Shown here in pieces: positions 3,698 to 26,640 of a stretch of DNA of 64,000 nucleotides (its first letter is position 1; every line of letters starts with the position of its first letter). The translations under genes and the position numbers were made by a program. Source of the DNA: Dictyostelium discoideum (Eukaryota); the NCBI GenBank assembly GCA_000004695.1, contig CM000151.3, positions 2,208,001-2,272,000 on the forward strand, in the 5' to 3' direction. The notes beneath the pieces are model-generated. The model was not told where the DNA came from and searched no databases. It saw only the letters and a program-made list of their open reading frames with translations.

Positions 3698-4461
3698 ATC
3701 TTTATTTAATAGTAAATTTAAAAAATAGTTGCAAAAGCAACACCTTGATAGTAAAAAAATTAAATATTTAAATAAATTATTATTTTATAACAATAACTTT
3801 TTTTTTTTTTTTTTTTTTGACCATAATTTTTTTTTTTATATATTAATTTTAAGTTAATGGGGTACCCAATCCCAAATTGTTTCAATTTTCCTACCCTGGT
3901 AACATTCAAGAAGAGGCCTGTAAAAAAAAGGTTTTATTTGAATCTTTCCAAATAAAAAAAAATAATAATAGAATCAAATATCTAATACAACACAAGATTT
4001 ATTATAATTCAATGGTTTGAATTTCTTGATTGAAAATATTTTAGAATAATAAAAAAACAATAAATAAATATTTAAAAATTAAATTTAATTAGGTTTTTGT
4101 TTTTTTTTTTTTTTTTATTTATCTTTAAATTTTCTAAAATTAAATAGTTCTAGAATGAACTTGAATAAATCTATTAATTTTCATCACTAAAATTTACTAC
4201 TATTATTATTATATTAAAAGCTTTTTTTTTTTGGTTTGAAATAATTTACAAAGTTTTTTTTTTTTTTTTTTATTATTCTTTTTTTATAAAAATTATAAAA
4301 TATATATGATCTAAATTGTTAATTTGATTTATACTACTGGGAAACTTGCAGAACTGGCAATACCACAGCTATAAGTTAAAATTTTAAAAATAAATGATTT
4401 GTTAGTAACTCTATTCTGTATATTAATATATGTATATATATATATTTTTAACTTGTAGTAC

Positions 4462-5616
<1,155 letters not shown>

Positions 5617-13393: not shown

Positions 13394-13499
13394 AAGAAAC
13401 AAAAATAAATTAAAAAAAATTAAAAAATAAATAAAAAAAAATAAATAAAAAAAAAATAAATAAAAAAAAAAAAAAAGAACAAAAAATTTATTTGATTCA

Positions 13500-13530
<31 letters not shown>

Positions 13531-13947
13531 AAAATTTTCTAATGTTTGTTTTAGGGATTGGAAAAACAATAGTAAAGAAAATAATAATAGAAATTTAAAG
13601 ATAAAAACTTTTTCTTTTATTTTTTTGACTAATATCCTTGATTGGTTTTCTTAATTTATTATTTTTTTATTTTTTTATTTTTTGTGTAAAAAGTGAAAGT
13701 AAAATTATTTGAATAACATTTTCAGAACCACACAAATTTTTTAATTTTGAACATTGAACAAATTAATTTTAGATTTTATTAAAAAATTTTCTTTGATTTG
13801 AAAATATCTAGCCAACCGATTTGATTACTTTTATTTTTTTTCTTTTATTTTCTCAAATTTTTTTTTTTTCTTTTTTCGAAACAAATCAACTTTATTTCAA
13901 TATTTTTTTATTTTTTTTAAAAAATTAATATTAATAAATAAATTAAA

Positions 13948-21609: not shown

Positions 21610-22747
21610 ATGAAAAAATATTCATTACTAATTTTAATATTGTTTATTAATTGTTCATTTTCTAAACTTACAGAAATTCAATATAGAAATGAATTTACAG
21701 CATGGATGACATCAAATCAAAGAACATATGCATCAAGTGAGTTTACTAATCGTTATAATACATTTAAATCAAATTTAGATTTTATAAATCAATGGAATTC
21801 CAAAGGTAGTAAAACAGTTTTAGCATTAAATGAATTTGCTGATATTTCAAATGAAGAATATAGAAAAAATTATTTAAGAAATGATAATAATATCAATAAA
21901 TTATCATCTTTATTAATTAATGATAAAGAAGATAAAGAAATTAAAAGTAGTAGTAGTAGTGGTAGTGGTAGTTCTGGAATTGATTGGAGAAAAAAAGGTG
22001 CAGTTCCTTCAGTAAAAAGTCAAATCGGTGGATGTGGTTCTTGGCCAATTACCGCAGTTGGTGCAACTGAAAGTGCTCATTTCTTAGCTAATCCAAAGGA
22101 CCCATTCATATCATTATCAATGCAAAATTTAATTGATTGTTCAAATTTAAATAAACAATGTTATCAAGGTACTGTTAATGAGTAAGTAATAATTATTATT
22201 ATTTTTATTTTTATTATTAAAATTAAATAAATGATTCTAATTATTATTTTTTTTTTAAAAAAACTATAATAATAATTATAGAGCATTTCAATATATTATT
22301 GAAAATGGTGGTATAGATAGTGAAGAATCTTATAAATTTAGTGGTGGTGAACCTGGAAAATGTAAATATAACTCTTCAAATTCTGTAGCTAAAATAACGT
22401 CATATGAAAAAGTTAAATCTGGTTCAGAATCATCATTAGAATCTGCTGTATCTCTTAAACCAGTTGCTGCTTATATTGATGCATCATTATCATCATTCCA
22501 ATTTTATTCTTCTGGTATTTATTATGAACCATCTTGTAATTCAACAGATTTAAATCATAGTATTTTAATAGTTGGTTTTTCTGATTTCTCAACAACACCA
22601 ACTGATTCTTTAAAACATTCCTCAAATTATTGGATCGTTCAAAATTCTTTTGGAAAAAATTGGGGTGAAAATGGTTATATCTTTATGAGTAAAGATAGAG
22701 ATGATAATTGTGGAATTTCAAAAATGGCAAGTTACGTTATTGTTTAA
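21610..22747 (+). CDS. Papain-family cysteine-proteinase paralog whose catalytic Cys is replaced by Ser (predicted pseudo-protease or altered nucleophile), about 345 aa. It has 2 exons: 21610..22181 and 22282..22747.
   Basis: The signal peptide and propeptide align with the proteinase at 4462..5613 (EIQYRNEFTAWM... versus [12 protein letters not shown]...). At the active site, the canonical [13 protein letters not shown] becomes KSQIGGCGSWPIT. The DNA reads caa atc ggt gga tgt ggt tct tgg, so the nucleophile position is Ser (tct). His (LNHSILIVGF) and Asn (VQNSFG) are retained. A GTAAGT donor at 22182 and a TTATAG acceptor at 22281 are phase 2. Like the other proteinase, it has a Ser-rich insert, SSSSGSGSSG. 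Confidence 0.85.
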
Positions 22748-23077
22748 AACATAAGTCTTTGAAAAAATAAAAATAATAAATAAAAATACATAGTAATTTT
22801 CATAAAAAAACAAAAAAGATATTATAGTTTGAGAAAACAGAAATGTGGTAATTCCAATCACAACTTTTTTTTTTTAAGATATTTTTTTTTTTATCATTTT
22901 TTTTATCAAAAAAAATATTCTGGTAATATTTTCAGAAAAAAAAAATGTTTTTTTTGTCGAAATTGTTGTTGTATTAAAATTTATAAAACATAAGGTGTCT
23001 CATATAAATTTTTTTAATTTTATGACCATTTTTTTTTTTTTTTTCAAAAATAATATTTGCACATCTTTATTAAATAT

Positions 23078-24793
23078 ATGAATAATTCTAAATTTCCAAA
23101 TTATATTTATAAAACTATAATTAACTTTTTAATTGAATATAATTATAAACATAAACAATCATTAAAAGCATATAAAAACTTATTAAATTATAATAATGAA
23201 GTTATTCAACTTTCTCTAGTATCAAAAAAGTGGTTTGAGTTAGTGTCAATCTCTTTAAAAGAAATTTTAAAATTTAAAAATATTAAATTATTATCAAATT
23301 TAATAGATTATAAAAATATTAAAAATAAAAATAAAATAATTAATTATTCATTAAGTATTAATAATAATGATAATCACAACAATAATAATAATAATCAACC
23401 ATCTTTATTAAGAATTCATCAATATAAAAAAAGTAAACATATTAATAATTATTATAATATGCAACCAATTTATAAAAAAGTATTATTAGTTTCAAAAAAT
23501 CATCAAGATTCTATGGATATTATAAAATCGATTAAAAATTATCCACCAAATTATTTATTTAATATAAGAGTATCATCAAATGGACCTGCTTTTTTAGTGA
23601 ATCAATTTGGAAAATTAAAAGAATTTTTATTATTAAATATTGGTAATGATAATGATGAAGGATTGGAAATAATTGAAAATAATTTAAAACTAAATGTAAC
23701 AATAGATTCGATAGTAAAAGAAAAAACTACAACAACATCAACAATGGAAACTACAGAAAAATTATTATTAAATAGAATTAATAAAATTAAATTCTGTGGT
23801 AATTATTGTGGTAGTAATAGTTTTGATCCTACAGAAGTTTTTAAGAAATTAAGTGAATTAAACCCAAAGAGATTAGAATTTAATAGTTTTATGGAAAAAC
23901 CAATTACAAGACTCCCATTTGAAGTTTTTAATTTAAAATCATTAAAATCATTAAAAATAAATGATTCTTCTATTTTAGAACCAAGTTGTCTTTCAAAAAT
24001 TGATAATCAAACTACAAAATTAAAAAAGCTAACTACTTATTTACCATTTAATCTATATGTAGAAGCTTTTAATTCTAGAGATGATAACTATATTAAAGAG
24101 TATGGTTGGGGTCAACTCTTTGAAATATTATCAAATAATAGAACAATTAAAAAACTACATATTAAATATATTTTCTTATCATCAAGACGTTATTTAGATT
24201 ATATGAATGCTAAATGTATTGACCCATTTAAACAAAATACAAATAAATTAAACCAATATTTTAGTTTAATTTTTGATAATAATAATAATAATAATGGTAG
24301 TGGTAGTAGTGGTTGTATAATTGAAACTTTAATAATTGATAAATGGTATTTCATAAATTCAATACTTTATAATTCATTATCATTAAATAAATCAATTATA
24401 AATTTAAAATTATTTGACCAATTTGTTGAACCATTCTTTGAATTTGTTTTACCAATAAATAAAACAATTAGAAATTTATATTTAAAGAATCCAATACTTG
24501 GTAAAAAGAATTTATTTGATATTTTTAAAAAATATTTTAATTTAATTTTAAATTTATATTCAATTTCAATTGTATTTATAATTACAAAAGTAACATCAAC
24601 ATTTATTGAAAAACAAATTGATTTAATTAAAAATTATTATTTATCATTATCACAATCAGAAACTTCAAATTTAAAAGAAATTAATTTTTTAATAGATTAT
24701 AAAGGATTTAAATTAGAAAATAATAAAAAAATTATAAATTTTACTAAAGTTTATAATATTATAATTTCAAAAATACCAATAAATTTTGTATAA
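23078..24793 (+). CDS. Hypothetical Asn/Ile/Lys-rich protein with an N-terminal F-box-like motif (about 571 aa)
   Basis: The long ORF has its first ATG at 23078 (tatATGaat). The ORF track's start at 23057 is a TTG inside a T-run. N-terminal YKTIINFLIEY...LLNYNNEVIQLSLVSKKWFELVS resembles an F-box (LPxEIL..IF..L...L.....VCK.W..L). The rest is leucine-rich-repeat-like and AT-biased, so this call has low specificity. Confidence 0.5.
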   Translation: MNNSKFPNYIYKTIINFLIEYNYKHKQSLKAYKNLLNYNNEVIQLSLVSKKWFELVSISLKEILKFKNIKLLSNLIDYKNIKNKNKIINYSLSINNNDNHNNNNNNQPSLLRIHQYKKSKHINNYYNMQPIYKKVLLVSKNHQDSMDIIKSIKNYPPNYLFNIRVSSNGPAFLVNQFGKLKEFLLLNIGNDNDEGLEIIENNLKLNVTIDSIVKEKTTTTSTMETTEKLLLNRINKIKFCGNYCGSNSFDPTEVFKKLSELNPKRLEFNSFMEKPITRLPFEVFNLKSLKSLKINDSSILEPSCLSKIDNQTTKLKKLTTYLPFNLYVEAFNSRDDNYIKEYGWGQLFEILSNNRTIKKLHIKYIFLSSRRYLDYMNAKCIDPFKQNTNKLNQYFSLIFDNNNNNNGSGSSGCIIETLIIDKWYFINSILYNSLSLNKSIINLKLFDQFVEPFFEFVLPINKTIRNLYLKNPILGKKNLFDIFKKYFNLILNLYSISIVFIITKVTSTFIEKQIDLIKNYYLSLSQSETSNLKEINFLIDYKGFKLENNKKIINFTKVYNIIISKIPINFV

Positions 24794-24917: not shown

Positions 24918-26640
24918 TTAATTTTCCCAATCACTATCGTCTTCATCATCTTCTTCATTTTCACCTAAATTTCCTCTTCGTTTAGCCATTGCTGCTGCTA
25001 ATGTATCTACTAATGAACGATTACCAGACTCACCTAATTGTAATTCTTTTAAATCTGGTAATGGTTCACTTGGATCTACTTTTTTTAAATGACTTGCACC
25101 TCCAAATCCTCTAATACTATCCATGAGATTTGAACGACCACTATCCAATGGTGGCATTGATGTGGGTGGTGCAGAGGTTGGTTTTGATATTGCTGGTGGT
25201 GGAGGTGGTACCATCGATGAATTATTTAATGAAATTGGTGCACTTGGTGGTGGTGGTGGAGGTGGTACCATCGATGAATTATTTAATGAAATTGGTGTTG
25301 GTTTTTCAATTGGTGATTGAATTGATGGTGCTGGTGGTAATGGTGATTTTGGATCAACTGGGGCAACTGGAATATGAGCTAATTGATCAGGCATTGGTGG
25401 TGGTGGTGGAGGCATTACATCACCCCCAACTTTATCAATAATAACTTGTGGTTGTTGAGTAGTTCTTTGAATAATTGGTGGTTGAACGACTGGTATTCTT
25501 TGTTGAGTTGGTGGTGTTGGTGGTAATCCTGGTCTTTTGGAAGTTGGTAACGGTGGTGGTGGAGATTGTAATTTTGTTTGTGAAGGTTGTTGTGATAAAT
25601 CTCTTCTTTGTCTTGGTGGAGGGGTTGGTTGTTTTCTTTGTGGAGTTACTTGTTGTGGTTGTTGTGGTTGTAGTGGTTTTTGTTGATAAAATTGATTATA
25701 ACCTTCTAAATTTTGTGGCTGTTGAGATGATTGATATACATATTGCTGTGGTGTTTCACCTTGGAAAGTGTATTCTTGAGGTTTTTGATTTTGTTGTTGG
25801 TAAACGTATTGTTGTACACCATTCGAAGTTGATTGCATTACTTGCTCCATTTGTTGTGGTGATGGACGTTTTTGTGTTGGTTGTAATGGTTCATCCAATT
25901 TATATTGTGATTTAAATTCTTGTTGGATCAATGGTTCGTTACTATTATATATTTGTTGCTGTTGTGGTTGTTGTGGTTGTGTTGGCTGTAGTGGCTCATC
26001 ATCTGGTTTCATGAAATTTTGATGAATTGGAATTGGTTTACCACCGATTGTAGTTGGTAATTTACCTCTAGTAGTATATGCTTGTTGTTGTTGTTGTTGT
26101 TGTGGTGGTTGTTGTTGAGCCATTTGTTTATATGGTTGTTGTGGTAATGGTTTATTAATTTGTTGGTGTTTTGGTAAAGGTCTAATTTCAGAACCAGGTT
26201 TTGGTGGAGGTACTCTTTGAGCACCCATTTTTTGAGTAGTTGATGTGGGTGGGGGTGGAGGTGGTGCTCTGGATCTAATTGGTTGTTGTTGTTGCTGTTG
26301 TTGTTGTTGCTGAGGAATATTGGTTTGCTGATATGGTGCTGTAGTTGTACCACCTGCCATACCTGCTTTTTGATTATTAATATTCTCACCTATTATACTA
26401 TAAATGAATTGAACAGTTTCTGGATTCTTTAAATCTTTTTTCTTTATACCTGCTGCTTGAAATAATTGTCTCCACTCTGGTGGAATATTTTTAATTTCAA
26501 AACCATTTTCTTTATCCCAACCTATATGAGATTCATGTTTAAAATCAGTTGGACCTGATATCTCCATACCTTTTTCTTCATTTCTATGTCTAGTTTTATC
26601 TAAAACTTTTTGAAAAAATCTACCATGTTTTTTTTTTGTT
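24918..26640 (-). CDS. WASP-family actin nucleation-promoting factor lacking a WH1 domain (basic region, CRIB, poly-Pro, WH2, central-acidic). This is the main exon. It resembles the WH1-less Dictyostelium WASP paralogs, but I am not sure which one it is.
   Basis: Upstream of the ORF-track Met, the frame continues with no stop up to the AG at 26641-26642 (KTKKKHGRFFQKVLDKTRHRNEEKG). The protein has the CRIB motif ISGPTDFKHESHIGWD, more than 300 aa of Pro/Gln-rich sequence with PPPPP runs, the WH2 motif RSNLMDSIRGFGGASHLKKV and the acidic tail ENEEDDEDDSDWEN. A 20-residue unit, PISLNNSSMVPPPPP, is tandemly duplicated; the DNA repeat lies at about 25190-25320. Confidence 0.85.

Follow-up and report, generated by a model that had tools for sequence, protein, structure and literature searches.

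Why does a papain-family gene carry a serine codon where the nucleophile cysteine is expected: is it an error, a decaying copy, an unorthodox enzyme, or a protein kept for something other than proteolysis? The question was raised by an earlier reading of the letters alone (hereafter the sequence-only reading) of a 64,000-nucleotide stretch of the Dictyostelium discoideum genome (contig CM000151.3, positions 2,208,001 to 2,272,000), which we refer to as the window. The segment concerned, window positions 21610 to 22747 on the plus strand, is the D. discoideum AX4 gene DDB_G0272742 (UniProt Q7KWP5, XP_644986.1). Its spliced product of 345 amino acids matched XP_644986.1 with 100% identity over the full length, and it is labeled in the databases as a "hypothetical" or "uncharacterized" protein. 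The gene has two exons and encodes a predicted signal peptide, an I29 propeptide, and a Peptidase_C1 domain. We found that this papain-family domain lacks the nucleophile Cys and yet is maintained by selection. It is probably a non-proteolytic pseudoprotease with a remodeled cleft, resembling SERA5 of Plasmodium falciparum.

By profile, the product belongs to papain family C1A, with Pfam matches far above chance to Peptidase_C1 (PF00112; E = 6.6e-58, 196.8 bits against a cut-off of 20.7) and Inhibitor_I29 (PF08246; E = 2.2e-15, 57.2 bits against a cut-off of 24.4). Three intron models left the frame open, and the one that we chose has a GTAAGT donor and yields a product 100% identical to the NCBI protein. 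The signal peptide was called by eye from its KK n-region, its hydrophobic core, and the small residues at -3/-1, and the ERFNIN spacing of the propeptide is intact (E44-R48-F52-N55-I59-N63). The predicted signal peptide aligned with that of cprE, the canonical paralog in the window. The sequence-only reading had listed a signal peptide and an ERFNIN-like propeptide region as retained.

The active site reads VKSQIGGCGSWPIT, and the distance from Gln19 to Trp26 (papain numbering) is identical to that in cprE. Trp26 is directly preceded by Cys in 88 of the 93 aligned nearest homologs, and this Cys is lacking only in the DDB_G0272742 protein and its four orthologs, which have Ser; the Cys22 column is Cys in all 93. 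An L-INS-i alignment with papain was ungapped and placed Ser144 in column 25 and Cys142 in column 23 instead of 22. HMMER and the other MAFFT runs introduced an Ile insertion after Gln19 and a one-residue deletion beside column 25, and at the DNA level this gapped history of the 20-25 loop costs fewer substitutions than the ungapped one. In every alignment version, Trp26 was preceded by no Cys. The Cys25 directly before Trp26 that marks an active papain-type peptidase is thus absent, and Ser stands in its place in all five species.

These results bear out two claims of the sequence-only reading, namely, that a cysteine-proteinase paralog, here a member of the cprE cluster, has Ser (TCT, 22039-22041) in the nucleophile column, and that the neighboring disulfide Cys is shifted, with Cys142 lying two rather than three residues before the nucleophile position. 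The alignment that it had named as capable of refuting it, with the upstream Cys of GGC in the catalytic column, never appeared, since Cys142 fell in column 22 or 23 throughout. It had also listed the catalytic His and Asn as retained (LNHSILIVGF and VQNSFG). This is correct for AX4, in which His159, Asn175, and Gln19, the other residues of an active peptidase, are all present, but the His is not universal, being replaced by Leu in D. firmibasis.

We rejected Cys142 as a displaced nucleophile because it occupies column 22 or 23 in all alignments and because the central helix of the predicted structure starts after Ser144. The disulfides of the papain family are 22-63, 56-95, and 153-200. The mature domain has exactly six conserved Cys residues (142, 177, 184, 218, 276, and 334), which suffice for these three bonds with no spare thiol, the bonding itself being predicted. 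Cys184 is the conserved partner of Cys142, so a nucleophilic Cys142 would leave it unpaired.

An AlphaFold2 (AF2) model of the protein had a predicted local distance difference test score (pLDDT) of 87.9 and a predicted TM-score (pTM) of 0.87. Its central helix spans residues 145 to 160 and begins at Trp145, so that Ser144 would occupy the N-terminal position held by Cys25 in papain. The best Foldseek matches were procathepsins L, K, S, and H (E ~1e-31; TM 0.85-0.89, normalized to target length), and the match list included engineered C25S and C25A cathepsin mutants, among them crystal structures of C25S cathepsin V with peptides in the cleft (7q8g and related entries). In crystallographic work, cathepsins engineered to C25S serve to keep peptides bound in the cleft. 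By sequence, the best matches in the PDB were cathepsins L, V, and K, with a cathepsin-silicatein chimera (2vhs) lower at 7.5e-48. The protein is therefore predicted, on the model, to have the two-lobe papain fold with the propeptide lying across the cleft.

Orthologs of DDB_G0272742 were recovered from D. cf. discoideum (89% identity), D. citrinum (81%), D. dimigraforme (71%), and D. firmibasis (68%), in loci that share the order of an IU-nucleoside hydrolase gene, a histone-fold gene, the Ser paralog, and, further downstream, ICL. Their exon structures could be recovered, with spliced coding sequences translating exactly to the deposited proteins, and reading frames and splice sites are intact in all of them. 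The sequence-only reading had proposed conservation in other Dictyostelium species as a check on its claim, and the check came out in its favor: QIG[G/D]CGSW is found in all five species, with the Ser codon TCT in 5/5. Two further D. discoideum isolates have the motif as well and were 96-97% identical to AX4, differing mainly by indels in the linker between propeptide and mature domain, and Ser is kept in all three isolates, AX4 included.

Pairwise ratios of nonsynonymous to synonymous substitution rates (dN/dS, Nei-Gojobori) were 0.23-0.38 for the Ser paralog, 0.21-0.27 for cprE, and 0.155-0.18 for par3, a third member of the cluster. By region, the ratio for the Ser paralog was 0.235 in the mature domain, 0.31 in the propeptide, and ~1.7 in the linker. 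The mature domain is thus as constrained as that of cprE (0.257). Values this far below 1 indicate that the Ser paralog is under purifying selection and is neither an artefact nor a decaying copy.

In a tree, the five Ser proteins formed a clade with 100% bootstrap support that branches within the Dictyostelium cysteine proteinases on a long stem, with a root-to-tip distance of ~1.0 versus 0.6 for the canonical paralogs. A profile built from the five orthologs retrieved only the same five at 652-715 bits, the next match scoring 438 bits. An exhaustive search of representatives put the protein in a 50% cluster of DDB_G0278401-like proteins with no closer separate lineage, and no D. purpureum protein turned up in any search. 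The D. firmibasis ortholog keeps the second, C-terminal intron of cprE and par3, which the other four orthologs have lost.

We defined a clade-fixed change as a residue that is invariant in the five orthologs and unlike the one common to at least 14 of 15 canonical dictyostelid proteinases. S27P, G36S, G65Q, M68V, A133Y, D158N, G160S, and K174Q are of this kind. The rearranged 20-25 loop, N/D64Y, and T69N are also specific to the clade, and L67T occurs in four of the five orthologs, with Lys in D. firmibasis. We assign positions 65-68, 133, and 160 to the backbone-binding strand and the S2 pocket and place 158 and 160 on either side of the catalytic His, as is established for papain and cathepsin L. 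The Gly65-Gly66 strand and the open S2 pocket (67, 68, 133, 157, 160, and 205) of the canonical enzymes are not preserved in the sequences, which would be expected to affect the structure. Cleft residues are invariant among the five orthologs more often than the rest of the mature domain (23/27 versus 111/175; Fisher p = 0.03).

Together, D158N and G160S give rise to an N-x-S glycosylation sequon that spans the catalytic His position in 5/5 orthologs (N-L-S in D. firmibasis), and neither cprE nor par3 has N158-x-S160. The clade has two further sequons of its own, at Asn221 and Asn277. The D. firmibasis ortholog has CTT (Leu) instead of CAT (His159) at L001:10909-10911 and keeps the sequon, and Trp177 is changed to Phe only in D. 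discoideum and D. cf. discoideum. The loss of His159 favors a pseudoprotease over an active Ser-papain. These comparisons give the picture of a cleft that has stayed fixed since it was remodeled, whereas residues required solely for catalysis are free to drift.

We propose the following course of events. Synteny and the tree suggest that a duplication in the cprE cluster, older than the radiation of the D. discoideum species complex, gave rise to the gene. A burst of change may have followed, in which Cys25 became Ser, the disulfide Cys moved by one residue, and the S1-S3 subsites were rebuilt; the fold and the new cleft would since have been held by the purifying selection measured above. The protein would be made with its signal peptide and inhibitory propeptide, pass through the secretory pathway, and receive N-glycans, perhaps at the edge of the former active site. 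Once in the endolysosomal system or outside the cell, it may bind a peptide or protein ligand in the cleft and leave it uncut. As it could not activate itself, its propeptide would be removed, if at all, in trans by the abundant true cysteine proteinases. By analogy, we infer that the protein lacks catalytic activity. In SERA5, the natural Ser596 gives no detectable protease activity, S596C confers activity, S596A has no phenotype, and the protein is essential (PMC4671257).

Several observations weigh against this reading. Gln19, Ser25, and Asn175 are conserved in 5/5 orthologs and His159 in 4/5, a pattern also expected for a catalytic Ser-His-Asn triad. Clade-specific changes are enriched in the cleft only marginally (p = 0.05), and the cleft statistics rest on a residue list taken from textbook knowledge. 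The His159Leu change of D. firmibasis is a one-nucleotide difference (CAT to CTT) in one assembly. In the literature, neither DDB_G0272742 nor Q7KWP5 was mentioned in any paper found by name.

The alternative that survives best, although we consider it unlikely, is an active enzyme with a Ser144-His283-Asn312 triad and a Gln138 oxyanion hole, either a weak or specialized serine peptidase or a hydrolase or transferase of non-peptide substrates on the model of silicatein. Besides the near-complete conservation of the four residues, it draws on the rebuilt cleft being conserved instead of decaying, on a mature domain no less constrained than that of cprE, a true enzyme, and on silicatein itself, a cathepsin-L fold with a Ser-His-Asn triad that is catalytic on non-peptide substrates and has Ser clusters near the His (PMC2755733). 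However, D. firmibasis has lost His159 with the rest of the protein conserved, and two species have Phe in place of Trp177, the residue that shields the His-Asn pair in papain. Papain-family enzymes hold peptides with a backbone-binding strand and an S2 pocket, which are altered here by G65Q and A133Y; a conserved sequon spans the His, and the clade lies inside the Dictyostelium cysteine proteinases, unrelated to silicateins. The natural Ser of SERA5 (PMC4671257), like C25S replacements in cathepsins, gives no detectable proteolysis. In a bolder version, the conserved Gln-Ser-His-Asn set and the maintained new cleft would mark a genuine change of chemistry: a secreted papain-fold serine hydrolase or transferase, recent in the D. 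discoideum complex, would act on a non-canonical (for example, glycan-, lipid-, or ester-linked) substrate, and the His-to-Leu change of D. firmibasis would reflect either a fault in the assembly or a loss confined to that lineage. This strikes us as a long shot.

We expect even less that the propeptide accounts for most of the protein's action, or that the protein, being unable to auto-activate, persists as a pro-form that stays latent for good. Such a pro-form might be a stable reservoir or a decoy with an influence on true cysteine proteinases, or it might be sorted or secreted as a signaling glycoprotein like CfaD. The I29 propeptide with its ERFNIN residues is indeed conserved (dN/dS 0.31), the nucleophile for autocatalytic processing is gone, and the low codon bias described below suggests low or restricted expression and not bulk digestion. 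CfaD, a secreted Dictyostelium chalone of the cathepsin-L family, does act as an extracellular signal (PMC4010531) and would be a possible analogy for the Ser paralog. The mature domain is under tighter constraint than the propeptide (0.235 against 0.31), which argues that it matters in its own right, and the linker, being fast-evolving, of low complexity, and disordered, could be cut by trans-acting lysosomal proteinases. The last alternative, a non-functional locus in the form of a decaying duplicate, a one-base error from TGT to TCT, or a gene using Cys142 as nucleophile, can point to the single substitution that separates the two codons, to an annotation that is only hypothetical with no literature mention by gene or UniProt name, and to the low codon bias, but we rejected sequencing error and pseudogene, and this explanation is essentially refuted as a whole, by TCT in five independently assembled species, Ser in three isolates, intact open reading frames and splice sites, a dN/dS (0.23-0.38) far below 1, and a Cys142 that aligns to the disulfide column 22/23, has its partner Cys184 conserved, and is not, as Ser144 is, at the helix N terminus of the AF2 model.

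The coordinates of the gene, its features, and its paralog are collected in Table 1. The sequence-only reading had described a Ser-rich insert among the retained parts. An insert is indeed found between His159 and Asn175, though as the short and variable stretch SDFSTTPTDSLKHSS, with a length of 8-23 residues across the orthologs, compared with ~25 in cprE and >100 in CP6; it is a remnant of the Ser-rich domain of Dictyostelium cysteine proteinases. The run SSSSSGSGSS, if that was meant as the insert of the catalytic region, is located elsewhere, at the junction of propeptide and mature domain. The orthologs of D. citrinum, D. dimigraforme, and D. firmibasis lack it, and its length is polymorphic among D. 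discoideum isolates.

Table 1. Positions of DDB_G0272742, its features, and its canonical paralog in the 64,000-nucleotide window
Feature	Position	Strand	Remarks
Whole gene DDB_G0272742, start to stop codon	21610..22747	+	ATG at 21610; prepro-cathepsin-L-like, 345 aa
Exon 1	21610..22181	+	Codons 1-190 and 2 nt of codon 191
Intron, 100 nt, GTAAGT...TATAG	22182..22281	+	Same position as cprE intron 1 and in all orthologs
Exon 2	22282..22747	+	Includes TAA stop, 22745-22747
Predicted signal peptide MKKYSLLILILFINCSFS, residues 1-18	21610..21663	+	Read from sequence; aligns with cprE signal peptide
I29 propeptide inhibitor domain, residues 29-84	21694..21861	+	Pfam PF08246, E=2.2e-15
Ser/Gly run SSSSSGSGSS, pro/mature linker	21946..21975	+	Variable, low-confidence; pLDDT ~55-63
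Gln138, oxyanion-hole Gln19 (papain numbering), kept	22021..22023	+	From alignment
Cys142, counterpart of disulfide Cys22	22033..22035	+	2 rather than 3 residues before nucleophile position
Ser144 (TCT), nucleophile position, directly before Trp26	22039..22041	+	N terminus of central helix
Cys184-Tyr-Gln-Gly replacing Cys63-Asp/Asn-Gly-Gly substrate-binding strand (N/D64Y, G65Q)	22159..22170	+	Fixed in 5/5 orthologs
Tyr255, position 133 (Ala in canonical Dictyostelium paralogs), bulky, S2-pocket position	22472..22474	+	From alignment
Asn282-His283-Ser284; His283 (CAT 22556-22558) is His159, in LNHSILIVGF	22553..22561	+	From alignment
S/T-rich insert SDFSTTPTDSLKHSS, between His159 and Asn175	22580..22624	+	Short, variable; pLDDT ~61
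Asn312-Ser-Phe; Asn312 (AAT 22643-22645) is Asn175, in VQNSFG	22643..22651	+	From alignment
Canonical paralog cprE, cysteine proteinase 5, 344 aa	4329..5613	-	Exons 5613-5072, 4918-4466, 4368-4329

The canonical gene that the sequence-only reading had placed at 4462-5613 is cprE (recorded as cysteine proteinase 5 precursor; Pfam Peptidase_C1, 4.9e-79), which in fact has three exons and ends at 4329, the third and terminal exon being 40 nt long (4368-4329). Its first intron (~5071-4919) holds a long (ATT)n microsatellite. The two genes are 16 kb apart, and their products share 48% identity at 100% query coverage with 27 gap positions, so the alignment had been overstated as one "residue for residue."

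The third canonical cathepsin-L paralog of the cluster, par3 (332-337 amino acids, Cys25 intact), was found in the syntenic loci of three species at L003:781-1864, L002:977-2139, and L008:3001-4192. In D. citrinum and D. dimigraforme, it has EMG1 on one side and the C2-domain gene on the other; in D. firmibasis, it follows EMG1 immediately downstream. AX4 lacks it cleanly, with only the interval 13394-13947 between the end of EMG1 (13393) and the start of the C2 gene (13948), and D. cf. discoideum lacks it too, so that the cluster has lost this gene in a lineage-specific manner. The Ser paralog of D. dimigraforme is 91% identical to par3 of the same species (L002:1938-2139) over its last ~129 nt (L002:11032-11160), against 63% in the core; with the AX4 ortholog, identity over this end is only 67%, and in the core it is 82%. 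A species-specific motif, GYVNM.KGR, is common to all three D. dimigraforme paralogs, in a comparison that also covered the 3' end of L006. These patterns indicate a 3' gene conversion in D. dimigraforme that halted short of the active-site Ser and His.

Codon usage also sets the Ser paralog apart from its neighbors. GC content at third codon positions (GC3) was 0.08-0.16, compared with 0.17-0.23 for cprE and par3, and C-ending two-fold codons made up 8-18% versus 23-39%. C-ending codons in Dictyostelium are linked to expression, and the low codon bias suggests that the Ser paralog may be expressed at a low level or in a stage-restricted manner.

Directly downstream of DDB_G0272742 lies an Asn-rich open reading frame of 578 aa (23057-24793, plus strand). 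Of the other species, D. cf. discoideum alone has a counterpart (L004:11378-13342), the remaining three syntenic loci having none, and the frame may represent a gene of recent, lineage-specific origin. The gene that follows (24918-26567, minus strand) is conserved in the loci of all five species. Across the window (1-64000), ARAGORN found no tRNA genes and no Rfam family reached its gathering threshold, and from ~47.3 to 60 kb there is no open reading frame of at least 150 aa.

Pseudoproteases are increasingly seen as regulators, and few are available in a tractable genetic system. Here, a model organism with easy knockouts has one together with its true-enzyme paralog cprE 16 kb off and four sister-species orthologs that show which residues are fixed. 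It offers a clean case for asking what the papain fold does without its nucleophile, whether ligand binding, regulation of cysteine proteinases, or CfaD-like signaling. In the AX4 annotation, the label "hypothetical protein" can give way to "cathepsin-L-like non-peptidase homolog (Cys25Ser)," and DDB_G0272742 should not be counted among the active Dictyostelium cysteine proteinases, although the practical consequence is small.

Among known systems, the closest are cprE, which shares its chromosome neighborhood, and its tandem relatives par3, CP6, and DDB_G0278401. The Ser paralog has in common with them the prepro architecture with ERFNIN, the position of intron 1, the six structural Cys residues, Gln19, His159, Asn175, and the site of the S/T-rich insert between His159 and Asn175, at 48-53% identity. 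The Ser clade differs from them in having Ser for Cys25, Cys22 shifted by one residue, the fixed changes G65Q, M68V, A133Y, D158N, G160S, and S27P, two to three new N-glycosylation sequons, a much shorter Ser-rich insert, lower codon bias, and a long stem branch.

A Ser at this position is less "unusual" than the sequence-only reading had it. Among the 150 cluster representatives nearest in the exhaustive search, 12 complete domains have the combination Gln19, Ser25, His159, and Asn175 (Q-S-H-N), with named examples in cerambycid beetles, Trichinella, a fish, and a plant, and Gly, Ala, and Val also occur at column 25. Such Cys-to-Ser homologs of cathepsin L are recurrent, and DDB_G0272742 is accordingly a further, uncharacterized case of the well-known non-peptidase homologs. 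The sequence-only reading had remarked that such proteins are usually inactive, and the His159Leu change of D. firmibasis favors that interpretation here. Particular to the Ser clade are the displacement of the disulfide Cys by one residue, an S2/S3 region whose remodeling has become fixed, and the sequon over the catalytic His.

A second dead cathepsin-L lineage exists in group-2 dictyostelids, in Acytostelium subglobosum (GAM19259.1; P0129) and Synstelium polycarpum (P0130). These paralogs resemble the Ser clade in their 44-48% identity over the aligned stretch and in a non-Cys residue (Ser or Ala) at column 25. Their columns 19/25/159/175 read F/S/L/N and L/A/L/N, with Gln19 and His159 also lost, and unlike in the Ser clade, their Cys22 is at normal spacing. 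We rejected a common origin, as they joined the Ser clade with 7% bootstrap support and each other with 94%; grouping apart from the Ser clade, they represent a separate loss of the nucleophile.

Silicatein of sponges is likewise a cathepsin-L-like prepro-protein with a Cys-to-Ser change and with His and Asn kept; the Ser-His-Asn triad is present in 4/5 orthologs of the Ser clade, the His being lost in D. firmibasis. We rejected membership among the silicateins since the clade nests among Dictyostelium cysteine proteinases and the best PDB matches are cathepsins L, V, and K. Dictyostelium is not known to make silica. The Ser-rich clusters of silicateins are situated close to the catalytic His or in the interval from His to Asn (PMC2755733), whereas the Ser clade took over its insert from the canonical cysteine proteinases of Dictyostelium and has it in a reduced and not an enlarged form. 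In the proteinases of the CP4/CP5/CP6/CP7 type, the Ser-rich domain lies at the same site, where the Ser clade has only ~8-23 variable residues; this domain carries GlcNAc-1-P on serine, as is known from the literature for cprG/CP7 (Ord et al. 1997, as cited in PMC4920372).

The system that DDB_G0272742 resembles most in its proposed role is SERA5 of P. falciparum. The two have in common the papain fold, a natural Cys-to-Ser change with His and Asn kept, a tandem cluster with Cys-type paralogs, and the secretory pathway, as predicted for the Dictyostelium protein. They are alike in fold only and are not orthologs, the Dictyostelium protein being nested among Dictyostelium cathepsin-L-like proteinases. 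SERA5 has long flanking regions, and the Dictyostelium protein differs from it in its classical I29 propeptide and its normal size of 345 aa. SERA5 has been found by experiment to be non-proteolytic yet functional (PMC4671257), and it is reported to be still able to bind peptides (PMC7132891). In the Ser clade, the altered S2 pocket and Gly65-Gly66 strand suggest that peptide binding may have been changed rather than preserved.

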